From positions 4,090-68,089 of the IMG/VR virus record IMGVR_UViG_3300032335_000935: a stretch of DNA of 64,000 bases, one strand, 5' to 3'. The stretch comes from a virus. The number at the start of each line of letters is the position of its first letter. Positions within the stretch are counted from its first letter, which is position 1. A model generated the notes under the pieces. The model was not told the origin of the DNA, ran no database searches, and saw only the letters and a list, made by a program, of their open reading frames with translations. Both the position numbers and the translations under genes were made by a program. Positions 23,839-39,019 of this stretch are shown here, piece after piece.

Positions 23839-24234
23839 ATGGAATACCTACCAGTACTGGAATTGATTGATCGACTGTGCATTGCACGAGTCAAACACCG
23901 CAGAACCAACGGTGCCAACAGTGTGGAACGTGACTGGTACGAACGCCAGTACGAACAACTGCAAAGGCTGGTGTCGTCGGTTGAGGAATTGGAACACAAT
24001 GTGGCGGCCATGACTGCCATACACGAAGCTATCTGGGAACTGGAATGGCAGCTGAAATCCGGTGTAGAGGATCAGCTCAGCCTGGAAGAAATTGGTCGCA
24101 GAGCCATTCGAATCCGTGACTACAACAACAAACGCATTTCGTTCAAGAATTCAATTGCGGCCTTGGTAAACCGTGACCCAGTGCGTGAACTCAAAACTGA
24201 CCATCTCAGCGATGGCACAGTTGACACTAAATAA
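23839..24234 (+). CDS. hypothetical protein
   Basis: RBS AAGAGG before ATG 23839. Confidence 0.4.
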   Translation: MEYLPVLELIDRLCIARVKHRRTNGANSVERDWYERQYEQLQRLVSSVEELEHNVAAMTAIHEAIWELEWQLKSGVEDQLSLEEIGRRAIRIRDYNNKRISFKNSIAALVNRDPVRELKTDHLSDGTVDTK

Positions 24235-24258
24235 TTTTTCACGTACAATAGCGATATT

Positions 24259-24333
<75 letters not shown>

Positions 24334-24354
24334 CCATATTTTAGAGAGTGCATC

Positions 24355-24729
24355 ATGCAGATCACAGAAGATCAGTTTCGTTTTGAGTGGTTTTCGGGCA
24401 CCGGTAAAGGTGGTCAGCATCGCAACAAGCATCAAAATTGTTGCCGCTGTATCCACGAACCCACTGGTATATCTGCCAACGGCACCAATAGTCGCAGTCG
24501 TGAAGACAACCGACGTGCGGCCTACACTGTGTGTCGCAGCCGTGTGCAAGCACACTTTCATCGCGATCGTGAGCGATTCTTGGCCGGTACTGAACGCATA
24601 CGCACCTACCACGAAGCTGACAATCGTGTTACAGACCATGCGTCGGGGCTCATGGACAGCTGGTCCAACATCATGGTCAAAGGCAACTTAGATTCCATGA
24701 TCACGGCTCGTGCACAGGCCACAAGATAA
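24355..24729 (+). CDS. arfB: peptidyl-tRNA hydrolase, release-factor GGQ domain (ArfB/YaeJ-like)
   Basis: FSGTGKGGQHRNKHQN...HEPTGI...RSR pattern of class-I RF catalytic domain; 124 aa with basic C-terminal half. Confidence 0.75.
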   Translation: MQITEDQFRFEWFSGTGKGGQHRNKHQNCCRCIHEPTGISANGTNSRSREDNRRAAYTVCRSRVQAHFHRDRERFLAGTERIRTYHEADNRVTDHASGLMDSWSNIMVKGNLDSMITARAQATR

Positions 24730-24799
24730 ACCCAAACCGGCGTTGGTCTAATGGATAAGGCAACGGTCTTCTACACCGTACGATGTGGGTTCGATTCCT
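24727..24799 (+). tRNA. tRNA-Arg (anticodon TCT), CCA encoded
   Basis: acceptor ccggcgt/acgccgg, anticodon stem acggt/accgt loop ctTCTac, T-arm gtggg-ttcgatt-cctgc. Confidence 0.75.
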
Positions 24800-24808
24800 G
24801 CACGCCGG

Positions 24809-24899
24809 ACCAAACAAAGCGAGTGTGGTGGAATGGTATACACAGCAGACTTAAAATCTGCCGCTTAATTGATTGAGGGTTCAAGTCCCTCCACTCGTA
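24809..24899 (+). tRNA. tRNA-Leu (anticodon TAA), type II, CCA encoded
   Basis: anticodon stem gcaga/tctgc loop ctTAAaa, long variable arm, T-arm gaggg-ttcaagt-ccctc. Confidence 0.75.
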
Positions 24900-24915
24900 C
24901 CACTAAGGAAACATC

Positions 24916-25161
24916 ATGAACAAACCCTTAACTGTTGAATTTGCCCCGGGCGCTTTTGATCAATTTGAAGGCACCCAGGAAGAACTGGATGAGCTCATGC
25001 GTGAACTCACTACTATGTTTACTGAACTCACACCGGAAGAACTGGCTGCTCGTAGTCGCCCGCTCAGTGAGGCTGATTTTGATGAGTTGCCAGACTCGGT
25101 AAAACAGCAACTGGCCGCAGCCTTGGCCGACGAACCTAGCCCTGACCGGAATCTACAATGA
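24916..25161 (+). CDS. hypothetical acidic protein
   Basis: ORF track. Confidence 0.35.
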   Translation: MNKPLTVEFAPGAFDQFEGTQEELDELMRELTTMFTELTPEELAARSRPLSEADFDELPDSVKQQLAAALADEPSPDRNLQ

Positions 25162-25505
25162 CCCCAGAACTGCAAGCTCAAACTCCAGCACAGGGTGTGC
25201 TACAAATCAAGGACTGGGGACAGAGTCAGATGTATCGTGCAGTGTGTGAGTGCGGCGACACTGACTGTGATCATGTGATCGACGTGGAAGCAGATGATCA
25301 TTCGGTCACTGTTACCATCTACACAAGAACACGCACCAATTTTTGGAGTCGCACACGCTGGAGTCACTTGTGGCGTCTGCTGACTCAGGGCTACACCGAT
25401 TACGAAACCACAATTATGTTGCAGGAACAATCTGCCTTGAACTATGCAGAAACACTGAAAAAGGCTGTGCAAGATGTCCAAAATTTCAAGAAGACCAATA
25501 CGTAA
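25158..25505 (+). CDS. hypothetical protein
   Basis: ORF track. Confidence 0.35.
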   Translation: MTPELQAQTPAQGVLQIKDWGQSQMYRAVCECGDTDCDHVIDVEADDHSVTVTIYTRTRTNFWSRTRWSHLWRLLTQGYTDYETTIMLQEQSALNYAETLKKAVQDVQNFKKTNT

Positions 25506-26052
25506 TGCTTTTCGCAAAGAGTGTTTGGCCAAACAACTCGAAGAAGGCGAGACCACTCAACAACATGCGGACGAAATGACTGACTTGTTCAAGAGCTGGG
25601 AAGAACAAAAACTAGAAATGGAAGAGACCTCGGACTGGCAGGAAAACAACATGGAATATGATCTGCGCACCACTGACTGGATCTTGGAAAAAGCAAGGTC
25701 TAGTGAACTGTATGCTCAGCACCTCTATGCAGCCTTGTGCAACAATGACTTTCAAAAAAATGATGTCATGCCTATTCTAAAAAACAAAACCTGGGGTTGC
25801 AGCTGGCGCTATGCTGGCGGCGTCATTGCCGACATGCGTGAGTCAGGCGACTACATGGACTGGTACTGCTCGGGCATACGGGGTGACAAATTGAGCGACT
25901 CAGAGTTTGCTGATTTGACCAAGGACCAAAAAGTTGCGTATCTTGAATCTCAGGCCTATGTTTCAGAAAGCGTGGTCACAGACGAAATTCGTGCGGACCT
26001 ATTTCGTCTGGGCTGGCTGGTGGTTGACAGCGAGGAGTCAAGCCTGATATAA
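25474..26052 (+). CDS. hypothetical protein
   Basis: ORF track. Confidence 0.4.
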   Translation: MSKISRRPIRNAFRKECLAKQLEEGETTQQHADEMTDLFKSWEEQKLEMEETSDWQENNMEYDLRTTDWILEKARSSELYAQHLYAALCNNDFQKNDVMPILKNKTWGCSWRYAGGVIADMRESGDYMDWYCSGIRGDKLSDSEFADLTKDQKVAYLESQAYVSESVVTDEIRADLFRLGWLVVDSEESSLI

Positions 26053-26223
26053 TTGCACTAAATAAGTGCCAAGGAGGGGCAAGCCATGAAACAGCGCAAA
26101 CTGGTTCAAAAGGTGTATCGAGCTTGCTTTGACCATGACGCCGAAAGATTAGCCCAACTCCGTAAGAAAGAGTTTGCTAAGATCCAAAAACGCCGGGCCG
26201 AAGGAAAGCCGTTCAATACCCGA

Positions 26224-26313
26224 TGGACTTTGGTTAGGATTTAAAGGTTATTGCTGTATGAAGCCGAGAGAAAAGTGTTCTGGACGCGGGTTCGACTCCC
26301 GCCAGGTCCACCA
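26224..26313 (+). ncRNA. ssrA: tmRNA acceptor piece (T-arm + 3' acceptor strand + CCA) of a permuted two-piece tmRNA (tRNA-like)
   Basis: T-arm gcggg-ttcgact-cccgc then caggtcc-a-CCA; 3' strand pairs with gggcctg at 26558 giving G3:U70. Confidence 0.6.
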
Positions 26314-26322
26314 TAAGGAAGT

Positions 26323-26544
26323 TTGATGCAAGTATACGGATATTGGGATAAGAAAACTAGGTTCATATTTGGACCTGGCAACTTTGAAATGGATTCAGCC
26401 AAGAGTGATTTGACTCCGTTTTATACCCAACCTGTCTATGAAGGGCAAGAACCTTTTGCCTGTATCAAATCTGATGTAGGAATATTTCTACACTATCCAC
26501 AATATATTGGACAGTATGATTTAGTTCCTGTGTATCAGGGTTAA
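26323..26544 (+). CDS. hypothetical protein encoded in the tmRNA intervening segment
   Basis: 73-aa ORF between the two tmRNA pieces. Confidence 0.3.
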   Translation: MMQVYGYWDKKTRFIFGPGNFEMDSAKSDLTPFYTQPVYEGQEPFACIKSDVGIFLHYPQYIGQYDLVPVYQG

Positions 26545-26557
26545 GTTTTCTTATGAT

Positions 26558-26746
26558 GGGCCTGTCATGGTTTCGACAGGGCAAAGAGTAACAGAGTGGA
26601 CAGCACGTTAGATGACGAACGTTAATCGCATAAAACCTATAAACGCCAACGACGACGTTTACGCACTGGCTGCTTGAGCAGCCCGCTGAGGTAGGAATAC
26701 CGAGAAACAGAAACTTCCAAATAGGCTCTTCGGAGCCTATTTTTTC
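26558..26746 (+). ncRNA. ssrA: tmRNA coding piece: 5' acceptor strand/D-analog, tag reading frame ANDDVYALAA-stop (26645-26677), terminator
   Basis: gggcctgtcatggtttcgacaggg resembles tmRNA 5' consensus; gcc aac gac gac gtt tac gca ctg gct gct tga; ends at hairpin ggctcttcggagcc + T7. Confidence 0.7.
26724..26746 (+). terminator. intrinsic terminator
   Basis: ggctcttcggagcc hairpin + tattttttc. Confidence 0.7.
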
Positions 26747-26759
26747 AAACAGGGCTCAC

Positions 26760-27410
26760 ATGCTAGCTACCATAGCACTATTTTTGCATCAACCCAAATG
26801 CTCAGTACAGAGCGGCAACGGCATCATACAGGCCTTGAGTCCCTATTATCGATTCAAGATCTTTACCCGACAGGCTGTGGAAGACGACTTCTTTGACGAT
26901 GTAGATGTAGTGGCCGTGCCTGGTGGCATAGGCGACAGCGAAAGCTATCGCTATGTCATGAGCGAACATGAATCGAGCATACAACAGTTTGTCAAACAGG
27001 GTGGCAGATATCTTGGCATCTGCATGGGCGCATACTGGGCCGATCAAGAATATCTTGGTCTCACCACCGGAGTCCGTGCTGTGCAGTACATCACGCGACC
27101 CAACACTGACACTCGCAGGCCACATCCCAAGAACATCGCAGTGACTTGGCAGGGCCAGGCCACCAACATGTATTTTTACGATGGCTGCGCTTTGGTGGGT
27201 GACGAAACCACGTTTGACGTGGTGGCTCGCTACAGCAACGGTGACCCCATGGCCATCATACAGAACGGTGTGGGCTTGATTGGCTGTCATCCCGAAAGCC
27301 AACAGTTCTGGTATCAAGAGCACTCATGGATGCGCCCGCACTACCACCAAGGTCAGCATGCCACTCTGTTGTTGAACTTTGTTGATCAACTGTGTGGACG
27401 AGATCGCTGA
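26760..27410 (+). CDS. class-I glutamine amidotransferase-like fold protein (DJ-1/PfpI/BPL_N-like)
   Basis: VAVPGGIG ... LGICMGAYWAD nucleophile-elbow-like Cys. Confidence 0.45.
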   Translation: MLATIALFLHQPKCSVQSGNGIIQALSPYYRFKIFTRQAVEDDFFDDVDVVAVPGGIGDSESYRYVMSEHESSIQQFVKQGGRYLGICMGAYWADQEYLGLTTGVRAVQYITRPNTDTRRPHPKNIAVTWQGQATNMYFYDGCALVGDETTFDVVARYSNGDPMAIIQNGVGLIGCHPESQQFWYQEHSWMRPHYHQGQHATLLLNFVDQLCGRDR

Positions 27411-27741
27411 CACAGTTTGCCAAAATGCATTGCGGCTGCTGGGCAAATCATGTATAAATATATTACTACTGATATATCATGCTAGTATAGGTCGTTAAAC
27501 CAATATTATCCAGCCCCGACTTCTCCTGGACTGACCAGCCTGGATGCCGGGGCTTTCTCATGGCACGAATCAATTTGACAAATTCTCTGCGATCATGTAA
27601 CATCACTGCTAAGTATGTCTAGCAACGCCGGCAGGGGCCGACGTCGGATCAGAATCGACGCTTGAGGTAGTGAAACCTCTTTACCAGCATGATATGCCTG
27701 TAACGCCGACCGTGAGGAAATTTCCAAGCTAGCTTACCTTT

Positions 27742-28620
27742 TTGGAGACTAACATGCGTTATTTCATCGCGGCCATGATCTGGTTGGCTGCTGTCTGTGC
27801 TCAAGCACAAACCATCACAGTACACATTCCTTACAGCAAGACCGGCAATGCACAAGCCACCACTCGACTGCTGTTGGACGGCCTGGAACAGCGGGGCTGG
27901 CGCTTTGACGAGCGTGTGACCAGCAATCCAGTGTTGAGCAAAGAAACATTTGCCAATGCCCGTGAGCCCATGTTGTTGCTGTGGGGCACTGATCTTGTGC
28001 CCACTCGCGCACATGCTGGCTATCGCCCAGTGCCTGCACCACAAGAACTGGTAACTGTGACTTACGTGATTCCACGCTACATCTGTGCTGCCAACAACAG
28101 CAATGTCAACCTCATTACCACTGAACAGTTTGTGAGTCGTGATCGTGTGTGGACCATTGGAGTCACTGTGGTACCAACCGAAGAACGTTACATACAAACC
28201 CTAAATCAGCACTTGGGCACACGTCACCGCATTGTGAAGTATACCAACAGTCGCGAACTCGAAGCCGCAGTGGCAGCTAGAGAAGTTGATGTGGTCATGA
28301 CTTCCATTGGATTGAGACTGGAACAACAGAATCGAGCACGTTGCTTCTACAACACCAGCCAGTATCGTGTGGGCTCAACTCCCTTGATCACTGACCATCA
28401 TCCTCACATGCTGCCTCGTAACTTTGCTGCTGTGAGTTATCTTGTGGCACGTGGCATGGATGCAGCCACCATGGCTCGCTTGCGTCAGGATACCTTGGCC
28501 GTACAGCGTGAGTACCAGCCCTATGTGGACTATCTCAAACGCAACTTCAATCCCGAAACACCCTTAGCATTGGATCAACAACTGCGTATCATTCAAGAAC
28601 TTGATGGCAACACTCCATGA
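27742..28620 (+). CDS. secreted/periplasmic solute-binding-like protein (TctC-like?)
   Basis: N-terminal signal peptide MRYFIAAMIWLAAVCAQAQ; translationally coupled to permease. Confidence 0.4.
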   Translation: METNMRYFIAAMIWLAAVCAQAQTITVHIPYSKTGNAQATTRLLLDGLEQRGWRFDERVTSNPVLSKETFANAREPMLLLWGTDLVPTRAHAGYRPVPAPQELVTVTYVIPRYICAANNSNVNLITTEQFVSRDRVWTIGVTVVPTEERYIQTLNQHLGTRHRIVKYTNSRELEAAVAAREVDVVMTSIGLRLEQQNRARCFYNTSQYRVGSTPLITDHHPHMLPRNFAAVSYLVARGMDAATMARLRQDTLAVQREYQPYVDYLKRNFNPETPLALDQQLRIIQELDGNTP

Positions 28621-29921
28621 ACCCTGAATGGTTGTTGTTGGCCGCTGCGCCCATGATTGGTGTTGTGATTGGTCTCATGCCAGCCCTGGGCGCACTGTTT
28701 GTGATGCTGATGCTGTATCCCATGCTGTTGCATGTGACCCCTTGGATCGTGGTGGTATTCTATGCCATGATCATTGCAGCACGTGATTTTTCAGGGTCAG
28801 TGGCGGCCTTGGGGTTTGGCATGCTGGGCGAAGTCAGTTCAGGTCCGGCACTGCGTGAACGTGCTGCCATTCTGGAACATGGTGGCAGTCGTCAGGCCTT
28901 GATTGACACCATGTGGGCCAGTCAAGTGGGTGTGATCACTAGCACAGCATTGCTTATCATGGCTGTGACCCTGGGCACTTCAACTGCGTGGTTGTTTCGC
29001 AGTGATGTGCAGGCTGTGTTCATGATGGTCACATTGCTGTTCTTGTTGGCCTGGGCCAATCAGGCCTGGTGGAAAAATGCTGTGCTCATGATCTTGGGCT
29101 ATGTGATTGGTGCTGTAGGCTACAACATGCGCACCAATTCTGACTTCCTGACCTTTGGCAACATGTATCTCATGGGTGGCATCCCTGTATTGCCTGTGAT
29201 CCTGGGCATATACGCTGTACCAGTGATGTTGAGAATCGCCGGCACTGCACCGCCGGGCGATCCTGCGCCCATCACACAGACATGGACTGTGGGTAGATCC
29301 TGGTTCAGCATGTTGCGTGGCAGTGTGATTGGCTCAGTGTCTGGGCTCATACCTTATGTAGGCTGTGTGGTAACCAGTAACTTGGCGCACTGGACAGAAC
29401 GTTGGTTCAGCCCACGTTGGAATCTTGATCACAGCCTACGCAGATTAAGTTCGGCCGAAGCGGCCAACAATGCTGCACATGTTACCAGTCTCATACCATT
29501 CATTGTCATGGGGCTGGCAGTGCAACCCAGTGAACTGGTGCTGTTGGAAATCCTACACACTCAAGGAGTGAGACCACAAGATGTTGCGGGACTTGTGTTT
29601 GCTGTGGCCGGGGGCGTGGCAGTGAGTGCCTTGGTGGCCGGGTGGTTGTGCAGTCATGTGGTATCACAGTTGATGGCCTGGTTCCAACGTTGGTTCCGTG
29701 CCATTGTGTCTGTGTTGGTGGTGGCCTTGATCGCCAATGTGGCCTGGATTGGCTGGAGTGCAGACCAAACTGTGTATTATCTTGTGACCTTTGCTGTGAG
29801 CATGCTGGTGGGCCTGGCATTGCATCGCCGAGTAGATGCCTTGCCCTTGGTGTTGGTGTTGCTGCTGCAAAATCATCTAGATATTGTGTTCCCTAGAATC
29901 TATCAATTTTACCTATCATGA
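28617..29921 (+). CDS. integral membrane permease, TctA-like (two internal repeats)
   Basis: many TM helices; GVVIGLMPALGA and GSVIGSVSGLIPYVG resemble the duplicated G-rich motifs of TctA. Confidence 0.45.
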   Translation: MNPEWLLLAAAPMIGVVIGLMPALGALFVMLMLYPMLLHVTPWIVVVFYAMIIAARDFSGSVAALGFGMLGEVSSGPALRERAAILEHGGSRQALIDTMWASQVGVITSTALLIMAVTLGTSTAWLFRSDVQAVFMMVTLLFLLAWANQAWWKNAVLMILGYVIGAVGYNMRTNSDFLTFGNMYLMGGIPVLPVILGIYAVPVMLRIAGTAPPGDPAPITQTWTVGRSWFSMLRGSVIGSVSGLIPYVGCVVTSNLAHWTERWFSPRWNLDHSLRRLSSAEAANNAAHVTSLIPFIVMGLAVQPSELVLLEILHTQGVRPQDVAGLVFAVAGGVAVSALVAGWLCSHVVSQLMAWFQRWFRAIVSVLVVALIANVAWIGWSADQTVYYLVTFAVSMLVGLALHRRVDALPLVLVLLLQNHLDIVFPRIYQFYLS

Positions 29922-30994
29922 TCAAACCCATTGTTCAAAAAATTCAACCCACAGCTGACTATGTGAGTCCACACTATCAAGTGGGCAATCGAGTGTTCTA
30001 CAGCAAACTAGCTGCCTTGACTCATTGTGATCGAACGAGCGTGGAGTGGCCCACGTTTCGTGTGTGGCCGCATGAACAAGGCCATGCCAGACCACAGGAG
30101 ACATTTTGGCAACTGGCCGTAGCGGCTGCTGAACAACTAGGTCGTGAGCACGGTGCTGTGAGACTGTGGTACAGCGGCGGATCGGACAGTCATGCTGTGC
30201 TGGAAGCATTGTTGCAGGCCGGCCACCCCCCAGCCGAATTGGCCATGTATCGACGTTTTGTGGGCGCAGTGGACGACACTGTGAACGTGGAAGTGGATGT
30301 GTTTCCGGTGCGAGAGTTTGCTCAAAAGACCATGGCCCGCTACGGTGCGGAGATACCAATTCGGGTGTATGATATCCTGCCCGACCACTTTGAGTGGTAC
30401 ATGCAAGATCCCGGCCAGCGTTGGTTCCGACACAAAACCTGCTGGCCCACCAGCATGAATGCTGTGGTGTGTCATGAAGTGTATCCTGAACTACAGACCG
30501 ACGGCTTAATCAACGTGGGCGGTGGTGCCACACCCACAGTGCGGGATCGCAGCTTTCACTGGGTAGATGCTGATTTCAATCTCAATTTCATGACTCCAAG
30601 ATTTGTGCACTTTTTCTCGGACCCACGTTGGCCCGAACTGTCAGCGGCCTATGCTTACGGAATCTATGACTGCGGTCAACGCGGCATCACCAACATTCGC
30701 GATGTCAAGCGTGAACTGGGATTTCCGCGGTTGGAAAACATGCTGGATCGCAAATGGATCTGGCCACATGTAAACGGTGAGGTCACCATCAAGAATGACT
30801 GGCGTCACTGCAAGAAAGAGCAACTGTTGTTGGCCAATGCGTTTCTCAGTGACCAAGGTCAGCAAACCTTGGATCGCATGCAAGCCTATCTTGTCACGTT
30901 GGCCAAGAATCGTCGCTGGTTCAACCAAGGCGACATTTTTCAAGACTTTGTGGGATCGGTCAGTGAAAGCCATGCTCTGGAAGATGTGTTGTAA
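29918..30994 (+). CDS. PP-loop superfamily ATP pyrophosphatase (QueC/TilS-like N-domain)
   Basis: VRLWYSGGSDSHAV = SGGxDS PP-loop. Confidence 0.5.
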   Translation: MIKPIVQKIQPTADYVSPHYQVGNRVFYSKLAALTHCDRTSVEWPTFRVWPHEQGHARPQETFWQLAVAAAEQLGREHGAVRLWYSGGSDSHAVLEALLQAGHPPAELAMYRRFVGAVDDTVNVEVDVFPVREFAQKTMARYGAEIPIRVYDILPDHFEWYMQDPGQRWFRHKTCWPTSMNAVVCHEVYPELQTDGLINVGGGATPTVRDRSFHWVDADFNLNFMTPRFVHFFSDPRWPELSAAYAYGIYDCGQRGITNIRDVKRELGFPRLENMLDRKWIWPHVNGEVTIKNDWRHCKKEQLLLANAFLSDQGQQTLDRMQAYLVTLAKNRRWFNQGDIFQDFVGSVSESHALEDVL

Positions 30995-31186
30995 AAACCA
31001 CAAAAAGGACAACAAAATTCTTGACTTTTGTCAGCAAGGCATATATACTAACACTATGACGACGCAACTGATCAACCTGAATTATTGCCCCACAATAGCT
31101 TATGAGAGCGATTGTGAGCCTTCATTCATGGCTTGGACTGCGGCGGGTGCAGTTATCAAGTAAGCACAACAACAAACAACCAAAGA

Positions 31187-31214
31187 CCCGCACCTGATGC
31201 GGGTTTTTCTTTTT
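31187..31214 (+). terminator. intrinsic terminator
   Basis: cccgcacctgatgcggg + tttttctttttg. Confidence 0.7.
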
Positions 31215-31218
31215 GTGC

Positions 31219-31247
31219 TAGACCAAAATTCAGTAGAGTGCTATAAT
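31219..31247 (+). promoter_or_regulatory. sigma70-like promoter (TAGACC-N17-TGcTATAAT)
   Basis: extended -10 tgctataat 31239-31247. Confidence 0.5.
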
Positions 31248-31317
31248 AGAAACAAGTCGAGAAAGACAGCAAAGTTTGTAAAGACCCTGCAACAAGGCGG
31301 GGCTTTTACAAAACAAG

Positions 31318-31346
31318 TTGACCAGTATAGCACTTGATGTTATACT
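31318..31346 (+). promoter_or_regulatory. sigma70-like promoter TTGACC-N17-TATACT driving ~320-nt leader into tRNA array
   Basis: ttgacc 31318-31323, tatact 31341-31346. Confidence 0.5.
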
Positions 31347-31673
31347 AGCGGCTTGATTGAGAAATAGTTGATCACAGCTACTTCCAGTGTTCTTTAACAA
31401 GTTACAGTTATTTTCATATGGTGCTGGGTTTGCCCAGCTACTATATGCAAACACATTAGGGTTACCTAGTCCGTTAGGGGTGAACAAAAGGCTGATTCGA
31501 GCCGGATACCCATGAAGCAGGAGGGTCCTAGAGTATGGCGAGACACCATCGAGCCAAAGGGTAAGGACTATTAAACTCCAGGAAGGCGGCGGAACTACTA
31601 GGCCCGTAATGAGGTCTTGATGCAAGTTGGTGATGCGTGTCAAGAACTTCCCTAATGTGGTTGCATATAGTAT

Positions 31674-31745
31674 GCACGGTTCGTCTATCGGTTAGGACAC
31701 GGCCCTTTCAAGGCCGGAAGACGGGTTCGATTCCCGTACCGTGTA
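31674..31745 (+). tRNA. tRNA-Glu (TTC)
   Basis: anticodon stem cggcc/ggccg loop ctTTCaa; T-arm acggg-ttcgatt-cccgt; CCA encoded. Confidence 0.75.
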
Positions 31746-31756
31746 CCAAGTTCTGT

Positions 31757-31831
31757 GGTGCGGTGGCAGAGTGGCCCAATGCACGGGATTGCAAATCCTG
31801 AAAACCGGGGGTTCAAATCCCTCCCGCACTT
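31757..31831 (+). tRNA. tRNA-Cys (GCA)
   Basis: acceptor ggtgcgg/ccgcact, loop ttGCAaa, T-arm ggggg-ttcaaat-ccctc, CCA. Confidence 0.7.
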
Positions 31832-31840
31832 CCAAGTCAT

Positions 31841-31926
31841 GTAGGTTGTTCCCCATTGCCGGCTGTAACCCGGTAGGCATTGTCAAGTGGGGTGGTTGCC
31901 AAGTGGTTCGATTCCATCAACCTGCA
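31841..31926 (+). tRNA. tRNA-Tyr-like (GTA), aberrant D-arm, possible pseudogene
   Basis: 6-bp anticodon stem tgccgg/ccggta loop ctGTAac; acceptor gtaggtt/aacctgc + CCA; no clean D-arm. Confidence 0.4.
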
Positions 31927-32003
31927 CCAAATTTTTCATAGGAGAGTGGCAGCGAGCCTACTCTTAAACGACTGGCCTCCACAGCGTCCTGGAACTTGTA
32001 CAT

Positions 32004-32085
32004 GGACAGGTGGGTGAGTGGTTAATACCAGCAGACTGTAAATCTGCCGCCTCCGGCTACGCTGGTTCGAATCCAGCCCTGTCCA
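32004..32085 (+). tRNA. tRNA-Tyr (GTA), type II
   Basis: acceptor ggacagg/cctgtcc, loop ctGTAaa, long variable arm, T-arm gctgg-ttcgaat-ccagc. Confidence 0.8.
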
Positions 32086-32093
32086 CCAATTTT

Positions 32094-32166
32094 GGTCTCA
32101 AAGTGTTCATGGACGCACGACGGCTTGTCACGCCGTAAGAGTGGGGATCGTTACCCCCTGGGACCG
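32094..32166 (+). tRNA. tRNA-Asp-like (GTC) with variant T-loop ATCGTTA
   Basis: acceptor ggtctca/tgggacc, anticodon stem acggc/gccgt loop ttGTCac, T-arm tgggg-atcgtta-ccccc (A54/U58). Confidence 0.55.
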
Positions 32167-32175
32167 CCAAGTCAA

Positions 32176-32247
32176 GGCTCGTTCATATAATGGTCATTAT
32201 CCCGGATTGTCTATCCGGAGATGGGAGTTCGATTCTCCCACGAGTCG
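32176..32247 (+). tRNA. tRNA-Asp (GTC)
   Basis: acceptor ggctcgt/acgagtc, loop ttGTCta, T-arm gggag-ttcgatt-ctccc, CCA. Confidence 0.8.
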
Positions 32248-32274
32248 CCAGGACATTGGTGTAAATAATACACA

Positions 32275-33231
32275 ATGAAATTACTAATAACTTTTGGATG
32301 CAGCTGGACTCATGGCGTTGGGGTCAATTACGAGCCAGGCATGTCAAGAAAAGAATTCAAAGCGGATTATTGGAACCCTGCTTATCACGATCAATACAGT
32401 TTTCGAGCATTGCTGTGCCAGGAGCACAACATGCACAACATAAACTTTTCTGTAGGTGGTAGCAGCAATCAGGCGCAGTTCAGATTGGCTGAAAATTTTT
32501 TTTCGTGTCTTAAATTTGCAGAATATCAAAAAGAGTATTCTGAGATTGTAGTATTGTGGGGTATTACCTCAGTTTTTAGAAACGAAATATATTACAATCA
32601 GGAAAAAGAATCCAAAAGTTATTTTTATACCGACGAGTCTTTGCTGAGCAAAGTCATAGTCAGTGATCACTTTGATCCACAATATGAGATGAGTTTGTTG
32701 TACCAAAAAATTATTTTTTGGAACAAATTTTTTGATCTCATGGGTATCAAAAACTTGTGGGTCGATACGTTTAATCATCACAACTATGTTTTAAGGCCCC
32801 CGACACATGTCATGGAGTCCTATCAGCAAAATGCTGGCCCGTCGTGGCCCAGTTGGGAACAGTTTATTGCAGGAGATCTGTCCAGTACTGATATTGAAAC
32901 TCAAGAGGAAATTCTTGACAAAAATCGCTGGGTGTTTTATAGATATTTCTATGATCCTGGACTAGACAGAATTTTTAAAGGGCCAGGGGCCGGGCCACGC
33001 GATTTGTTGAGTCAAATGGCCATACAGCATGGTATGTCTGTCATGGACAATCGCTATCACTTGTCAACTTGGCAAGATGATTGCAATAGAATCACACATC
33101 TAACCAAACTTGGACTTTTGAATCCCTATTCAAATCATCCCACAAAGTTAGGGCATAGATGCATTGCTGATTTGTTGTCCAGTACATTACCAATCAATCG
33201 CATGGAGTCAGATGAGAAGTCAGTCTCATAA
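32275..33231 (+). CDS. SGNH/GDSL-like hydrolase family protein (paralog D), embedded in tRNA array
   Basis: MKLLITFGCSWTHGVG and C-terminal LGHRCIADLL; RBS absent, AT-rich. Confidence 0.5.
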   Translation: MKLLITFGCSWTHGVGVNYEPGMSRKEFKADYWNPAYHDQYSFRALLCQEHNMHNINFSVGGSSNQAQFRLAENFFSCLKFAEYQKEYSEIVVLWGITSVFRNEIYYNQEKESKSYFYTDESLLSKVIVSDHFDPQYEMSLLYQKIIFWNKFFDLMGIKNLWVDTFNHHNYVLRPPTHVMESYQQNAGPSWPSWEQFIAGDLSSTDIETQEEILDKNRWVFYRYFYDPGLDRIFKGPGAGPRDLLSQMAIQHGMSVMDNRYHLSTWQDDCNRITHLTKLGLLNPYSNHPTKLGHRCIADLLSSTLPINRMESDEKSVS

Positions 33232-33625
33232 GCTCTACCCCGACGGTTTGAATCCAGTACGGGTCGCCAAGTTTTGTCATAGTGTAATGAGAATGCACGG
33301 GATCGCCACATAAGTCTATGCCGAAAGGCAACACTAGTATTCTAGTGCAACAGCGGTGGAACAAGGTTCAGGTACGGTAAAAACCCGTAACGACATATAA
33401 GTTTTGAGAGTGTCAGCAAGAGAATGTCACGCTGTCTAGGTAAGTTCGAACTACCAAAACAGTAGAAGGTCGCGGGTTCGATGCCCGACGGATCGGAAGA
33501 TCCGGGTGCATGATGGCGCACAGACTGGACCGGTATCCCAAGTGACGTACCGAGTCCCAGCCGGCCTTGATTAAAAGGGTGAATGGTTCCTATAACGATG
33601 GGGGAACTACTCTCAAATTCACAAC

Positions 33626-33697
33626 ATCGCATTCGACTTCAGGTGAGGTCAACGGGCTTTCAATCCGTGTAGAGGGGATCGTTACCCCTATGCGATA
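33626..33697 (+). tRNA. tRNA-Glu-like (TTC) with variant T-loop ATCGTTA
   Basis: acceptor atcgcat/atgcgat, anticodon acggg/tccgt loop ctTTCaa, T-arm agggg-atcgtta-cccct, CCA. Confidence 0.6.
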
Positions 33698-33705
33698 CCA
33701 CTTTT

Positions 33706-33794
33706 GCCTCTGTAGTTTAATGGTAAAACAGCGGATTTATATCCCGTGTGCAACAGATAATTGGCCAATACAGGTTCGACTCCTGTCGGAGGCA
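33706..33794 (+). tRNA. tRNA-like, 89 nt (anticodon candidate TAT or GAT; extra hairpin/insertion), possibly tRNA-Ile
   Basis: acceptor gcctctg/cggaggc, D gttt/aaac, T-arm acagg-ttcgact-cctgt, CCA; anticodon arm ambiguous. Confidence 0.45.
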
Positions 33795-34039
33795 CCAACA
33801 GACCATTTTGGTCAAATTGATCGGCCTGTGTCAAAAACTCAATGACGATGGGCCCAACTGCTGGGGACCAATAATTGGATCCAGGGCCTCTGGGATTAAG
33901 TTCAAGGCTGTTAGTCACAGTCGAACCATGTGCCTGGAAGGAAGTGAGCGCAGACTTGTGTTCAGTACCTTTAAACACAAAGCAGTAGGCAGATCAGTTT
34001 GTCCAAAATAGTTTGACAACAAAACGCATTTGTCTTACA

Positions 34040-34530
34040 ATAGATACTTGGGGCAGTTTATTGTCCTGCGCAGTATGGTTCGCCCAGCTGTGCAAAGAAT
34101 AACTGGGGTGACCCAGCCAAAGGAGGTAAGCCTACGCAACTCCGCCAGCAATGGTTCGTGTAAACAAGCCTGCTCAGGTCCGCGAGGATCCCTTCACTGA
34201 GAAGACCGGTGGAGGTAACAATGACGCTGGGAGTATAGGAAAGAACAGTGGCTTACCGGCCCGCAAGGGTAACCGGAGTCGCTGGAAAGTAACAGGTGGT
34301 GCTGACTTCTATACAAAACCAGCCCAGTTAATTGGTATGAGAAAGGGTAGCGTACAGGTCCGAGAGGTTGCACTCAAGGGCTTGTGCGCAGTTTTAGTGG
34401 TCAGTGGAGGTACGCGAAAGCCGAGACCCGACACAGATCGCAAAAGACGGTTGAGTAGTCCGCAAGACCAAAGACACGTGGTGAGTTGTATTGTGCAGTC
34501 CAAAAGATTGTTCAGCAACTGAGTCAGCTC
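34040..34530 (+). ncRNA. candidate structured non-coding RNA (~0.5 kb; GNRA-tetraloop hairpins; group-I-intron/RNase-P-like?)
   Basis: no credible ORF (34151-34522 ORF is low-complexity Arg/Gly-rich); motifs cccGCAAggg, tccGCAAga, gcGAAAgc. Confidence 0.3.
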
Positions 34531-34540
34531 ATCGCAGTAG

Positions 34541-34612
34541 GTTGTTATAGCACAATGGTAGTGCATTTCTCTGTTAAAGAAACGGCTGAAGGTTCAACTC
34601 CTTCTAACATAC
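34541..34612 (+). tRNA. tRNA-Asn-like (GTT) with imperfect acceptor stem (possible pseudogene)
   Basis: D gcac/gtgc, anticodon tttct/agaaa loop ctGTTaa, T-arm gaagg-ttcaact-ccttc; only 5/7 acceptor pairs, no CCA. Confidence 0.4.
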
Positions 34613-34953
34613 AAAAACGCAAAGACTGACTCGGTCATATGTGAAAAGCATCTAATACTTGACTGGCAACAGAATCAAGTCCAACGTAGCTCGCAAGGTG
34701 AAATTGGTTTATGCAGGAAGTTTCGTAAGGTGTTAGCGCACTTGAATGGCTCGCAAGGTCAACGGGATAGAAAGCGTAGAATAGCATGTGACGACAAGCC
34801 TACTGCCTGGCTTTAAAAACGGCGATGCTGACAGCAGACTAGGTTACATAGCAATATGGATCTAGTGGAAGTCGAGAGAAGCTAGACTCGCAAGGTGTAG
34901 CGTAATGCTCGAGGTGTTGTTGGCTTAAGGTGTATTCTCAACCTTAGGCACTA

Positions 34954-35028
34954 TCGTAAAACACATTGCATGAATGGATACAATCTGTAGGCATACAGAA
35001 GAAACAGAGCAGGTAGTGTGTTTTACGA
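34954..35028 (+). repeat. 12-bp perfect inverted repeat pair (tcgtaaaacaca / tgtgttttacga) enclosing ~50 nt, just upstream of a tRNA-like gene
   Basis: arms 34954-34965 and 35017-35028. Confidence 0.6.
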
Positions 35029-35036
35029 TGGTTCAT

Positions 35037-35111
35037 GGCTGGGTACCAGAGAGACTCAATGGCTGCGCCTGCAAAGCGTTTGATTCGTAGGTTTGAATCC
35101 TACCCCAGCCT
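35037..35111 (+). tRNA. tRNA-like (anticodon uncertain, possibly GCA)
   Basis: acceptor ggctggg/cccagcc + CCA, T-arm gtagg-tttgaat-cctac; weak D/anticodon stems. Confidence 0.4.
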
Positions 35112-35138
35112 CCAACATAAATAACTGTAACTGATTGT

Positions 35139-35210
35139 CGCGCGGTGGAGAAGTGGCAACTCATCGGGCTCATAACCCGAAGATCGGGGGTTCGAATCCC
35201 TCCTGCGCAA
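35139..35210 (+). tRNA. initiator tRNA-fMet (CAT)
   Basis: C1-A72 mismatch, anticodon stem tcggg/cccga (three G-C) loop ctCATaa, T-arm ggggg-ttcgaat-ccctc, CCA. Confidence 0.75.
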
Positions 35211-35264
35211 CCAAAATTTGGCGTGTTGTATAAATACAACACATGAAACAAAATCATTTAGTGG

Positions 35265-35293
35265 TTGACAACAATCACTAAATACTGTACAAT
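35265..35293 (+). promoter_or_regulatory. sigma70-like promoter TTGACA-N17-TACAAT
   Basis: ttgaca 35265-35270, tacaat 35288-35293; followed by 46-codon ORF/sRNA ending near ccggggttttt. Confidence 0.5.
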
Positions 35294-35709
35294 AGGACTT
35301 ATGATGAAAACTGTAATTCATTCACTGTTGACCAAACCCACAATGCTCCAGACAGCTTCTGCCTGGTCACGCGGTTTTGCGAGCGTGAATAGCATTCCAG
35401 GAGTGTCAGGGTCCGAAGGTGGCGGTTACGCATAAAGTGTAACTAACAAATTCAAAGGACCCTGGAACTAACAACTCCGGGGTTTTTCATTTAGTGCAAT
35501 AGGGAACGCGACCCTGCCGGCACTGTAAACATTGGCTTAATGTGGGCGGCCTACCGGATGGTAAGTTCCAGGCGATAACTGGAATGTGTAAAAAGGTAGT
35601 GTATCGAAGCATTCTCTATCCTTCGGCTCCCTGGCACAAGGGCCAGGGCAAGGAGACACGTGGGTTCACCCATGAAGAGTGCTTCGATACACGCATTGGC
35701 AACAGTGCG

Positions 35710-36324
35710 TTAAGAAGTTTTTTTGGTCTTGAGGTCAAGACTGAACTTGAAGCTGTAGCGAACTTGATCAGTGTCGTTCATGCCACAGTGCCTGGCTCGG
35801 TCAGTGTTGATGATCATCCAGCCCTGTCCTGGTGCTGACGGTGCTCGCAACAGGTGTCCGTGCTGACCAGTATCAAACCAAGTGCTGTGCAAGGCATTGT
35901 CCTCGTGAGTAAAGTAGATCATGCCAAATGCCACTTGATTGCGACTGTCAACGTGCCAGGGATGTTTGCAATATCTGGCCGGTGTGGCCACCCAGTTGCA
36001 CTGAAGTTCAGTCAAACTGTCAAAGTACTCGCGCTGAGGGTTACCCCAGGCCATGCAGAACTCTTCATTGTCAAACAACAATGACAGCAGGCGTTGCTTG
36101 AAATCGGCTGTGAAATGTTTTTGAAACACACTGAGCTGAGTATCATAAGGAGCGCAGTACGTGGCCAAGCACATCACTGCAAATTGATCTTGACCACCAA
36201 TGGTTGGTTCCGAACGCCAACCTAGATTTTCTAATTCTTGATGCATGTGACTCCAGCTGGCTGGTGGATCCTGTGTGTCAACAAAGTAAACAATGTCAGA
36301 TGCGGGTGTGAATGTAACTTGCAT
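35710..36324 (-). CDS. hypothetical protein (possible Fe/2OG-oxygenase-like HxD..H)
   Basis: start trimmed to MQVTF at 36324 because ORF 5' extension overlaps tRNA-Trp. Confidence 0.4.
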   Translation of the reverse strand: MQVTFTPASDIVYFVDTQDPPASWSHMHQELENLGWRSEPTIGGQDQFAVMCLATYCAPYDTQLSVFQKHFTADFKQRLLSLLFDNEEFCMAWGNPQREYFDSLTELQCNWVATPARYCKHPWHVDSRNQVAFGMIYFTHEDNALHSTWFDTGQHGHLLRAPSAPGQGWMIINTDRARHCGMNDTDQVRYSFKFSLDLKTKKTS

Positions 36325-36338
36325 GTGGTATTTAATGT

Positions 36339-36409
36339 ATCTCGCTGGTGTAATGGCAGCATGTCGGTCTCCAAAACCGTTGGTCGGGGTTCGAGTCCCT
36401 GGCGGGATG
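36339..36409 (+). tRNA. tRNA-Trp (CCA)
   Basis: acceptor atctcgc/gcgggat, loop ctCCAaa, T-arm cgggg-ttcgagt-ccctg, CCA. Confidence 0.75.
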
Positions 36410-36419
36410 CCAATTTGTT

Positions 36420-36494
36420 GGGGTGTAGTGTATTCTGGTACTAGCACATGTGGCTTTGACCCACATAGATTCGGTTCGATTCCGGACACCCCTG
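36420..36494 (+). tRNA. tRNA-Gln (TTG)
   Basis: anticodon stem tgtgg/ccaca loop ctTTGac, T-arm ttcgg-ttcgatt-ccgga, CCA. Confidence 0.65.
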
Positions 36495-36505
36495 CCAAGA
36501 TTCTT

Positions 36506-36577
36506 GGGCTGTTAGTGATAATGGGAGCACGAGGCCTTTGCACGGCTTAGGTGGGAGTTCGATTCTCCCACGGTCCA
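36506..36577 (+). tRNA. tRNA-Ala (TGC)
   Basis: acceptor gggctgt/acggtcc with G3:U70, loop ttTGCac, T-arm gggag-ttcgatt-ctccc, CCA. Confidence 0.8.
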
Positions 36578-36586
36578 CCAAGATAT

Positions 36587-36657
36587 TCCCCGTTAGCTCA
36601 AAGGTAGAGCACTCGACTGATAATCGAGCGACCGAGGATCGTTACCTCGACAGGGAA
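36587..36657 (+). tRNA. tRNA-Ile-like (GAT) with variant T-loop ATCGTTA
   Basis: D gctc/gagc, anticodon ctcga/tcgag loop ctGATaa, T-arm cgagg-atcgtta-cctcg, one acceptor mismatch, CCA. Confidence 0.55.
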
Positions 36658-36668
36658 CCAAGTTTTCG

Positions 36669-36697
36669 TTGACAGCCAATTCTATTGGCTATATAAT
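36669..36697 (+). promoter_or_regulatory. sigma70-like promoter TTGACA-N17-TATAAT inside tRNA array
   Basis: ttgaca 36669-36674, tataat 36692-36697. Confidence 0.55.
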
Positions 36698-36706
36698 TTG
36701 CTTTAC

Positions 36707-36793
36707 GGAGGGCGGGCCGGACGGTAAGGCAGCTGATTGCTAATCAGTACATCGGTGAAAGCCGGTGAGTGGGTTCGACTCCCACGTCCTCCA
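36707..36793 (+). tRNA. tRNA-Ser (GCT), type II
   Basis: acceptor ggagggc/gtcctcc, loop ttGCTaa, long variable arm, T-arm gtggg-ttcgact-cccac, CCA. Confidence 0.8.
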
Positions 36794-36802
36794 CCAAACA
36801 AT

Positions 36803-36874
36803 TCCAGAGTAGCACAGCGGTAGTGCAGTTGACTGTTAATCAATTGGTCGTAGGTTCGATCCCTGCCTCTGGAG
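36803..36874 (+). tRNA. tRNA-Asn (GTT)
   Basis: acceptor tccagag/ctctgga, loop ctGTTaa, T-arm gtagg-ttcgatc-cctgc, CCA. Confidence 0.75.
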
Positions 36875-36882
36875 CCAATTTT

Positions 36883-36953
36883 GCCCCTGTAGCATGAAGG
36901 TCGTGCAGTTGCCTTGTAAGCATCAGGTCCGTGTTCGATTCACGGTGGGGGCA
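36883..36953 (+). tRNA. tRNA-Thr (TGT)
   Basis: acceptor gcccctg/tgggggc, loop ctTGTaa, T-arm ccgtg-ttcgatt-cacgg, CCA. Confidence 0.7.
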
Positions 36954-37004
36954 CCAATTCTGAATCCATACTCTCCCTTGACGAGCTAGGTCACTGGATT
37001 CTTT

Positions 37005-37075
37005 GCGTGGTTAGTTTAACGGTAAAATCAAACGTTGCCAACGTTTAGTCAAGGGTTCGACTCCCTTACCCCGCA
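37005..37075 (+). tRNA. tRNA-Gly (GCC)
   Basis: anticodon aaacg/cgttt loop ttGCCaa, T-arm aaggg-ttcgact-ccctt, CCA. Confidence 0.75.
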
Positions 37076-37085
37076 CCAAATCAAT

Positions 37086-37160
37086 CTCTGTGTAATGTCA
37101 ATCTGGCAGACGGCCTGGTTCGGAGCCAGGAGGCTGTAGGTTCAAATCCTACCACGGAGA
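37086..37160 (+). tRNA. tRNA-Pro (CGG)
   Basis: acceptor ctctgtg/cacggag, anticodon cctgg/ccagg loop ttCGGag, T-arm gtagg-ttcaaat-cctac, CCA. Confidence 0.7.
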
Positions 37161-37170
37161 CCAAGTCAAC

Positions 37171-37244
37171 GCCGCGTTAGCTCATTTGGATAGAGCACTG
37201 TGCTACGAACGCAGGGGCGGGGAGTTCGAATCTCTCACGCGGTA
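37171..37244 (+). tRNA. tRNA-Arg (ACG)
   Basis: acceptor gccgcgt/acgcggt, anticodon ctgtg/cgcag loop ctACGaa, T-arm gggag-ttcgaat-ctctc, CCA. Confidence 0.75.
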
Positions 37245-37270
37245 CCAATTTTTTAAACAAGGACAACAAC

Positions 37271-37522
37271 ATGGAACGATATAAACAACTAGTTCGCATC
37301 CAGCGTTGTGTCCTGGGTGAAGTAGAACATGAAGTAACTGTTCGCAACATCAACGGCAACTATCATTGCCGAGTGTTGGTTAACGGTGAATTGAATCAAG
37401 AAGCAGTATGCTCGAGCAAGCGTGACATTGGTTACACTTGCCGTAGTTTGCTTCGTTGGGAAGACAAGTGCGGTAACATCAGCAAGTTTGCAAGTGCCGC
37501 AAGAGAGCGTTTATTCGCTTGA
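37271..37522 (+). CDS. hypothetical small Cys-containing protein (83 aa)
   Basis: RBS AAGGA upstream. Confidence 0.35.
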   Translation: MERYKQLVRIQRCVLGEVEHEVTVRNINGNYHCRVLVNGELNQEAVCSSKRDIGYTCRSLLRWEDKCGNISKFASAARERLFA

Positions 37523-37575
37523 TTTTTAAAAGGAAGATGATATGAAACGAGGTAAACGATAGTGTCATCCTGGAT

Positions 37576-37703
37576 CCCGTATGGTCCTGGATGGCACGAT
37601 AAAGAAAATTATTTACGATCCATCCCTCACAAACATTAAGGTGATGTAACCGGCTCTTAACCGGTAAAACACGGATCGTTACCGTGGTGTGGGACCATAC
37701 GGG
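37576..37703 (+). repeat. 12-bp perfect inverted repeat pair (cccgtatggtcc / ggaccatacggg) bracketing the variant tRNA-Lys(CTT); right arm overlaps its 3' end/CCA and the start of tRNA-Lys(TTT)
   Basis: arms 37576-37587 and 37692-37703. Confidence 0.6.
37624..37694 (+). tRNA. tRNA-Lys-like (CTT) with variant T-loop ATCGTTA
   Basis: D acat/atgt, anticodon accgg/ccggt loop ctCTTaa, T-arm cacgg-atcgtta-ccgtg, CCA; one acceptor mismatch. Confidence 0.55.
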
Positions 37704-37774
37704 TTTATAGTTTAACGGCTAAAACATCTGGCTTTTAACCAGTAAGAGTCTCGGTTCGAATCCGAGTAGACCCA
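37701..37774 (+). tRNA. tRNA-Lys (TTT)
   Basis: acceptor gggttta/tagaccc, loop ctTTTaa, T-arm ctcgg-ttcgaat-ccgag, CCA. Confidence 0.7.
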
Positions 37775-37780
37775 CCAAAG

Positions 37781-37845
37781 TTTTCATATAATTGAACTGT
37801 AGGCATAAATACAGTATAGAAAGTATGAGTTCAATTATATGAAAA
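37781..37845 (+). repeat. 18-bp perfect inverted repeat (ttttcatataattgaact / agttcaattatatgaaaa) at 5' edge of HNH cassette; HNH ATG lies in right arm
   Basis: arms 37781-37798 and 37828-37845. Confidence 0.6.
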
Positions 37846-38969: not shown

Positions 38970-39019
38970 TTATTGCTAAACTCAGCAAATAAAATCTAAG
39001 ACTTCAAAGATCCGTAAAT

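Follow-up and report, generated by a model that had tools for sequence, protein, structure and literature searches.

A reduced class-I release factor predicted in the tRNA array of a putative jumbo phage, and the large, essentially virus-restricted family to which it belongs

Here we describe a small phage gene that appears to encode a class-I release factor (RF) pared down to its C-terminal third. The gene lies at positions 24355–24729 (+) of a 64,000-nucleotide stretch of viral DNA (IMG/VR record IMGVR_UViG_3300032335_000935, positions 4,090 to 68,089 of that record; 'the window' below means this whole stretch), in an array of tRNA genes and about 1.5 kb upstream of a transfer-messenger RNA (tmRNA). 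The open reading frame (ORF) runs from ATG to TAA and encodes a product of 124 amino acids, here called mini-RF. Judged by its sequence and predicted fold, mini-RF is a class-I release factor cut down to domain 3, helix alpha7 and a remnant of domain 4, without domain 1, the codon-reading domain 2 or the switch loop. It represents a family that is large, essentially restricted to viruses and under strong purifying selection as a protein, and it probably acts as a codon-independent peptidyl-tRNA hydrolase in ribosome rescue or termination.

A release factor cut down to its C-terminal third

An original prediction, made from the letters of the DNA alone, had recognized in the product the catalytic domain of class-I release factors, quoting a stretch around the GGQ tripeptide and the strings HEPTGI and RSR. 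All of these are present in the ORF (SGTGKGGQHRNK at residues 14–25, HEPTGI at 34–39 and RSR at 47–49), and the domain assignment is borne out by a match to Pfam RF-1 (PF00472; E = 2.4e-15, 56.9 bits against a gathering cut-off of 35). Residues G19, G20 and Q21 are invariant among 76 members of the family, and remain so in an alignment that includes six full-length release factors. Across the 76 sequences the invariant positions around the catalytic loop are F8, W12, S14, G15, G17, G19, G20, Q21, R23, N24, C29 and C30, followed by R31, H34, G38, G43, R49, N52, R83, Y85, N90, V92, D94 and R119. The resulting family signature, W(F/Y)SG.G.GGQHRNKHQNCCR, departs from the RF1/RF2 consensus GGQHVNKT.SAVR at R23, H26, C29 and C30. 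We considered and rejected the idea that the invariant C29 and C30 bind a metal: neighbours on one strand would face opposite ways, and there is no further cluster of conserved cysteines or histidines beyond those shared with release factors.

Homology to RF1 and RF2 extends over the whole of mini-RF. In NCBIfam, residues 2–121 align with positions 210–340 of the 347-position prfA model and 223–350 of the 353-position prfB model, with scores that miss both equivalog cut-offs (67.9 against 400 bits for prfA, 52.8 against 370 for prfB). A phmmer search of all PDB sequences returned RF1 chains at 3e-13 over residues 6–118, with C12orf65 and PrfH weaker, while a profile of the 76 members matched RF1 and RF2 at about 1e-19 (profile positions 3–124 corresponding to residues 231–361 of Escherichia coli RF2), C12orf65 at 7e-12 and PrfH at 1e-9. 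Aligned with the six full-length release factors, the family starts exactly at domain 3 and extends to the RF C-terminus, with a gap of 10–11 residues where release factors carry the switch loop G(T/G)GDRSEK. The last 40 residues correspond to the domain-4 segment: the phage motif ERIRTYHEADNRVTDHASGL has an RF1 counterpart in the phmmer alignment, the element RxYN..RVTDH and the terminal helices are retained, and R83, Y85, N90, V92 and D94 align with RF1 and RF2.

The predicted structure agrees with this. An AlphaFold2 model computed from the 76-member alignment (mean predicted local distance difference test score, pLDDT, 83.4) has its secondary-structure elements in RF-like order, including the three-stranded sheet and long helix alpha7 of the RF-1 superfamily fold; the residual linker is modelled with low confidence (pLDDT 54). 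In a Foldseek search of the PDB, ranks 1–47 were all RF1, RF2 or mtRF1/mtRF1a, with about 130 aligned columns each, and PrfH followed at rank 48. From the model and the alignment the parts of the protein are assigned as follows:

Strands at residues 8–13, 29–34 and 40–43, with GGQ at 19–21: domain 3 (catalytic)
Residues 49–73: helix alpha7
Residues ~74–82: shortened linker replacing the switch loop
Strands at residues 83–86, 91–94 and 100–102, helices at 103–108 and 113–123: domain-4 segment

The missing domains are not encoded elsewhere in the window. Full-length release factors used as queries match only the mini-RF ORF in the six frames of the 64 kb, with no ORF for PCRF or domains 1 and 2, which rules out a split release factor; nor is there room for the missing N-terminal domains in front of the gene, as a tRNA ends 18 nt upstream. 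Longer homologues, considered as fusion architectures, proved to be fragments of ordinary release factors containing PCRF and RF-1, or mis-joined gene calls.

Comparison with known GGQ proteins

The original prediction had named the protein an ArfB/YaeJ-like peptidyl-tRNA hydrolase, an identity that did not hold: NCBIfam, phmmer, profile, alignment and Foldseek comparisons all group mini-RF with full-length RF1 and RF2. The ArfB models of NCBIfam gave no match to mini-RF even at E ≤ 1, and no ArfB or ICT1 chain fell below 0.01 in the phmmer search of PDB sequences. Chains of the ArfB/YaeJ type met the family profile at E = 0.056–0.087, over just 15–29 residues around GGQ (about 15 for the ArfB and YaeJ chains themselves), and BLASTP against E. 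coli ArfB aligned only 25 residues. ArfB is also absent from the 50 Foldseek PDB matches listed, which reach E values of about 1e-3.

The C-terminus tells the same story. ArfB, YaeJ and ICT1 possess a flexible linker and a basic C-terminal helix with conserved residues of the type R118/L119/K122/K129/R132 (PMC3950681). Neither is found in mini-RF, whose C-terminus instead aligns with domain 4 of RF1 and RF2 and is predicted to form a folded beta/alpha unit. The earlier description of the protein as ArfB-sized with a basic tail was therefore half right: its size is comparable (124 against about 140 residues) and the isoelectric point (pI) of the whole protein is 9.7, but residues 95–124, the last 30, contain 3 Lys/Arg against 2 Asp/Glu. 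Similar size, a GGQ domain standing alone without codon-recognition domains, and the overall pI are what an ArfB/YaeJ orthologue would share with mini-RF; such an orthologue would have a basic tail behind its GGQ domain with which to probe the empty mRNA channel of non-stop ribosomes. Sequence and fold already largely refute this explanation, and we consider it highly improbable.

Mini-RF does resemble ArfB (YaeJ) and the mitochondrial ICT1 as a small stand-alone GGQ protein without codon-recognition domains, and the outcome predicted for it, stop-codon-independent peptidyl-tRNA hydrolysis on stalled ribosomes, is the same. It would thus be ArfB/ICT1-like in outcome yet lie outside that family, as a separate reduction of RF1/RF2. 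With the latter it shares GGQHxNK, the THxPTG strand, alpha7, the RxYN..RVTDH strand pair, the terminal helices and the predicted fold; it differs from them in the lack of domain 1, of the PCRF/domain 2 portion with its PxT/SPF codon reader and of the switch loop, and in the family-specific invariant residues R23, C29 and C30.

Two further reduced or modified release factors deserve comparison. Mitochondrial mtRF-R (C12orf65) has a basic C-terminal extension and acts with MTRES1 on split large subunits, whereas the C-terminus of mini-RF is that of RF domain 4 and mini-RF has no known partner. PrfH, of about 200 residues, has retained a domain 2/4, modified so as to read a decoding centre that is damaged, and its gene lies next to rtcB; mini-RF, in contrast, lacks domain 2, and no RtcB was seen next to its gene. 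By analogy with these proteins, mini-RF could be a specialist, either for peptidyl-tRNA on split 50S subunits or for ribosomes whose decoding centre or tRNA has been cut by a host defence nuclease. We regard this as unlikely. Mini-RF has neither the basic C-terminal helix of C12orf65 nor the domain 2 of PrfH; the PrfH model (TIGR03072) scores 48.1 bits against a cut-off of 166.65 and matches just residues 2–73; and neither RtcB nor another ligase was found among the recurrent neighbours of the gene or the scanned proteins of the window, for which the 25 most frequent Pfam families were listed.

Small GGQ-domain proteins are likewise encoded by other phages, among them the proteins of PHROG 3122 and 20323, UniProt A0A6J5T9T2, and short proteins of Acinetobacter phages 133 and Henu6 and Pseudomonas phage phiPsa347. 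Many of those deposited earlier are 64–76 residues long and comprise the GGQ domain alone. PHROG 3122 and 20323, both annotated 'RF-1 domain peptide chain release factor', match only residues 3–59 and 8–68 of mini-RF, at 30 and 29 bits. A0A6J5T9T2, from an uncultured Caudovirales phage, automatically named 'PrfB' and present in BFVD, is 40% identical to mini-RF (Foldseek E = 3e-8) and appears to belong to the same family. We found no functional characterization of small phage RF-1-domain proteins in the literature searched.

Family size, distribution and selection

The family is large. A search of 5.8 billion clustered proteins (90% clustering) returned 1,206 matches, the best 120 of which are 73–93% identical to mini-RF, nearly all exactly 124 residues long; the metagenomic contigs that carry them reach 374 kb. 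With a 41%-identical member as the query, a further search gave another 1,073 matches, mostly of 127–136 residues. Nearly all representatives of the two subfamilies fall between 124 and 135 residues. When 1.84 billion 50%-cluster representatives were scanned exhaustively with HMMER, more than 100 clusters of 120–145 residues covered the whole query.

It is also essentially confined to viruses. IMG/VR contains 254 mini-RF loci on contigs of up to 374 kb, while a pattern scan of cellular genomes, one per species for 185,579 bacterial and archaeal species, found just 22 loci. Those cellular matches that cover at least about 110 query residues lie on contigs of metagenome-assembled genomes (MAGs) from unrelated phyla, and are best explained as binned viral DNA. 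The sole exception, in Gemmobacter caeni DSM 21823, covers residues 1–115 at 35% identity and may be the C-terminus of an ordinary release factor; other matches in isolate genomes are partial only. No close relatives were found in 50,697 GenBank phage records, where DNA matches were to tRNAs only and protein matches did not exceed 43% identity and were almost entirely to release factors of bacterial type, in records that were contaminated or lacked annotation.

Among 44 distinct coding sequences for 124-residue members, median pN is 0.167 and median pS 0.811, with dN/dS of about 0.08 where synonymous divergence is unsaturated. These values also dispose of the most deflationary explanation, that the gene is a functionless, decaying fragment of a captured prfA or prfB. 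A mini-RF does equal a truncated release factor, but more than 2,000 cluster representatives of fixed length, an intact GGQ, clean domain boundaries and the low dN/dS refute decay, to which we assign next to no probability.

Genomic setting

The mini-RF gene is closely flanked by tRNA genes. The original prediction had placed three tRNAs and an apparent tmRNA within 2 kb of it, and ARAGORN and Rfam confirmed all four. The features of the region are:

24221–24249 (+): candidate sigma-70-like promoter, TTGACA-17-TACAAT (11/12), 10 nt upstream of tRNA-Met; consensus match only
24259–24336 (+): tRNA-Met, anticodon CAU (ARAGORN; Rfam tRNA, 59 bits), ending 18 nt before the mini-RF ATG
24355–24729 (+): mini-RF coding sequence, 124 amino acids (PF00472, alignment, model)
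24737–24812 (+): tRNA-Arg (UCU; ARAGORN, Rfam), beginning 7 nt past the mini-RF stop
24819–24902 (+): tRNA-Leu (UAA; ARAGORN, Rfam)
26024–26053 (+): candidate promoter with perfect sigma-70 consensus, TTGACA-18-TATAAT, and an upstream TG (extended -10; 12/12), just upstream of the tmRNA; consensus match only
~26208–26768 (+): two-piece (circularly permuted) tmRNA, outer bounds from Rfam alpha_tmRNA and ARAGORN, core tmRNA_permuted match at 26252–26677

The tmRNA scores 138.6 bits against RF04321 (gathering cut-off 47) and 51.5 bits against RF01849, and ARAGORN predicts the tag ANDDVYALAA. The promoter candidate at 24221 could drive a transcript of tRNA-Met, mini-RF, tRNA-Arg and tRNA-Leu; the count of sigma-70-like sites in the region is not above that expected from shuffled sequence.

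The array as a whole spans 24259–44201 and contains 42 tRNA genes, all on the (+) strand (41 found by ARAGORN and one more, at 39209–39280, by Rfam), with anticodons for nearly all amino acids and no suppressor anticodon. A full-length GOLLD RNA lies in it at 34478–34944 (+) (RF02032, 204 bits against a gathering cut-off of 150), with tRNA-Asn (34540–34613) nested inside. A long tRNA-Ile (UAU) of 91–96 nt, which may carry a long variable arm or an insertion, occurs at 33706–33797 and recurs in three related loci (L023, 3345–3436; L034, 1320–1410; L039, 2876–2971).

Placement between two tRNA genes is typical of the 124-residue clade. The order tRNA(CAU), mini-RF, tRNA-Arg(UCU) recurs in the closest relatives. 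In the two closest, L001 and L002 (91% identity), a 117-residue ORF without Pfam match (4651–5004) stands between tRNA(CAU) and mini-RF and overlaps the mini-RF start by 4 nt; this ORF is not present in the window. At 18 of 66 distinct loci one tRNA ends 10–25 nt before the ATG and another begins 0–8 nt past the stop, and at 40 of the 66 there are tRNAs within 4 kb. The flanking pair is Met/Arg in the closest relatives and elsewhere Val/Leu, Ser/Arg, Glu/Tyr, Leu/Arg, Thr/Ala or Leu/Pro; because the flanking tRNAs vary among lineages in this way, the place of mini-RF in the array has been kept while the array itself was reshuffled. Members of the subfamily of about 130 residues mostly have no tRNA within 4 kb, and two of their large contigs carry tRNA arrays 5–6 kb off.

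A tmRNA also occurs near a 39%-identical member (L180/L181), with no tRNAs nearby. An Rfam scan of seven distant loci revealed no further convincing tmRNA. At one locus (L161, 10701–10782), 340 nt past the mini-RF homologue, an 82-nt element scores 61.6 bits against RF00023 with nearly all internal model positions deleted, and is probably a tRNA-like domain or a tRNA-Ala-like gene only.

Predicted function and competing explanations

Ribosome rescue or peptide release is a plausible role for mini-RF and, in our view, the most reasonable inference. All three elements through which hydrolysis depends on a stop codon (domain 1, domain 2 and the switch loop) have been lost, and the catalytic GGQ loop has been kept together with the RF scaffold that bridges the decoding region and the peptidyl-transferase centre. 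Since the parts coupling release to stop codons are gone and the GGQ loop and scaffold are invariant, A-site binding and stop-codon-independent hydrolysis of peptidyl-tRNA are to be expected. Mini-RF would bind the ribosomal A site, hydrolyse peptidyl-tRNA without a stop codon and thus free nascent chains from ribosomes stalled during infection. Such stalls could arise, for instance, where an mRNA is truncated, where host nucleases have cut an mRNA or a tRNA, or where tRNA processing has trimmed a phage transcript. Mini-RF may act beside the phage tRNAs and tmRNA, as one component of a translation-maintenance module. The position of mini-RF among phage tRNAs and near a tmRNA fits such a module, in line with a general account of huge phages that lists 'release factor 1 and 2', tmRNA and SmpB among their genes (PMC7162821) and with the view that jumbo phages counter host defences that jam translation (PMC7824862).

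We hold this codon-independent hydrolase to be reasonably likely, and several observations weigh against it. The notion of a phage-borne ribosome-rescue 'toolkit', part of the original prediction, survives as far as linkage to tRNA arrays is concerned, which is widespread, but a tmRNA was found by ARAGORN within ±10 kb at only about 12 of 77 related loci, a minority albeit from several lineages, and SmpB was not found in the window by tblastn with the E. coli protein, a search of low sensitivity covering 64 kb of the roughly 350-kb genome. The tight tRNA flanking itself may reflect where small accessory genes gather. Other ORFs of the array start 13–24 nt past a tRNA (24916, 32275, 37271, 41196) or end 0–17 nt before one (34522, 44125), and are thus packed equally tightly, making close flanking a trait of the region rather than of mini-RF alone. 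Isolated RF domains are not known to hydrolyse efficiently. With neither the basic tail of ArfB nor domain 2, mini-RF has no evident determinant for ribosome binding in its predicted architecture, and the shortened alpha7 and linker may leave the decoding centre out of reach of the domain-4 segment when GGQ is in the peptidyl-transferase centre. Finally, domain-4 strands pair with the domain-2 sheet in full-length release factors, so a partner may be needed, and none is conserved beside the gene.

The last point leads to the possibility of two-component release, in which mini-RF has no activity of its own and depends for recruitment on a phage or host adaptor that replaces domain 2 through beta-sheet augmentation. 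There is precedent for adaptors in ArfA, BrfA and ArfT, which recruit RF2 or RF1. From the model, the alignment and general knowledge of RF structure, the retained domain-4 strands, which normally extend the domain-2 sheet, would present an exposed edge, and many small uncharacterized ORFs surround the gene. Clustering of the ORFs within ±3 kb of 67 distinct loci, however, identified no conserved protein partner, the best cluster being present at 13 of the 67 and at variable positions. The recurrent annotated neighbours are a DUF2828/DUF7788 protein, a PTPase, an AAA_33 kinase, an RNaseH-like protein, AhpC (a peroxiredoxin) and CMD, of which the phosphatase, the kinase, the peroxiredoxin and the DUF2828 protein are not adaptor-like, and the window encodes no PCRF-like ORF. 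Two-component release thus seems a minor possibility, on a par with the specialist role discussed above.

Slightly less probable still is that mini-RF is a dedicated terminator and rescuer of tRNA-punctuated phage mRNAs, the RF scaffold having been reduced a second, independent time, with a different ribosome-sensing module, in answer to the problem that ArfB/ICT1 solve. Stop codons of ORFs in the array lie 0–17 nt before the next tRNA, so tRNA processing would leave mRNAs that end at or just past the stop codon. Mini-RF could then free complete phage proteins from such 3'-truncated messages, which tmRNA would instead tag for proteolysis. Mitochondria, where tRNA processing likewise yields mRNAs ending at stop codons, also evolved ICT1, mtRF-R and mtRF1.

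A modulatory role, lastly, would make mini-RF a decoy for the A site or PrmC, or a host shut-off factor through which host nascent chains are released too early and whatever the codon. Release without regard to the codon is potentially toxic, and the family-specific invariant R23, C29 and C30 of the GGQHRNKHQNCCR motif, beside GGQ, set the family apart from RF1 and RF2. Against this, the invariant GGQ and the catalytic-loop residues N24 and K25 speak for catalysis, and the gene sits among genes that support translation (tRNAs, tmRNA) rather than shut-off genes; we think a modulator very unlikely.

Phage identity and other genes

The window appears to belong to a jumbo phage: it carries the 42 tRNA genes, the tmRNA and the GOLLD RNA, its relatives lie on IMG/VR contigs of 340–375 kb, and its PHROG matches include HNH endonucleases, thymidylate synthase, an exonuclease, QueD/QueE-like proteins and GTP cyclohydrolase. 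Neither a capsid nor a terminase gene was seen in it, and the viral assignment therefore rests on its relatives and gene content.

Some neighbours of mini-RF recur across loci. A protein of about 470 residues with DUF2828 and DUF7788 is encoded within about 2 kb of mini-RF in eight loci (e.g. L046, 2528–3952; L018, L036, L048, L051, L060), directly upstream in L046 and L048. Three adjacent genes of the window (+) encode a DSP/PTP-type phosphatase (49321–49800), an AAA_33 P-loop kinase (49767–50267) and a metallophosphoesterase (50316–50939), and homologues of this trio lie within 3 kb of mini-RF elsewhere (L051, 921–1966; L042, 2024–2491). They may be an RNA end-healing set; no ligase was found among the neighbours and window proteins scanned. 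In a 74%-identical relative (L184; JACCDV011241818.1, 356 kb), a PP-loop ATPase of the TilS/ATP_bind_3 family (PF01171; 9171–9785) is immediately upstream of mini-RF, and is another tRNA-related neighbour.

Downstream of the tmRNA, at 27742–30994 (+), a membrane subunit of a tripartite tricarboxylate transporter of the TctA family (28617–29921; Pfam E = 3e-41) is encoded between two ORFs without Pfam matches, and these genes also follow the mini-RF region in L001 and L002. Auxiliary metabolic genes of the window encode a nucleotide-sugar epimerase/dehydratase (1422–2393), GTP cyclohydrolase I (4144–5001), a Bax1-inhibitor-like membrane protein (5014–5700), a B12-binding radical SAM enzyme (7563–9575) and S-adenosylhomocysteine hydrolase (47186–48475), and QueD/QueE-like and ThyX matches lie elsewhere in it.

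Significance

Termination and rescue genes of huge phages have been published before, so the advance here is the specific architecture and its distribution, not the concept. A survey of RF evolution covers RF1/2, two classes of ArfB, PrfH, ICT1, C12orf65 and MRPS35 but makes no mention of phages (PMC6514570), a survey of jumbo phages treats Pth2 and Pth1 and not RF-1 domain proteins (PMC7824862), and our literature search for phage ArfB or mini-RF found nothing specific. The mini-RF architecture, well-defined, abundant and virus-restricted, thus appears not to have been described previously.

If active, mini-RF would represent a third architecture for stop-codon-independent peptide release, after ArfB/ICT1 with their basic tail and ArfA/BrfA/ArfT, which combine an adaptor with a full release factor: an RF core without codon reader and switch loop that has kept domain 4. 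It offers a natural 'minimal release factor' with which to ask which parts of RF1 and RF2 are needed for A-site binding and catalysis. The existence of an abundant, virus-confined family of this kind suggests that stalled ribosomes are a bottleneck, or a battleground, which jumbo-phage infections meet time and again, and complements the tRNA arrays and tmRNAs that these phages carry.

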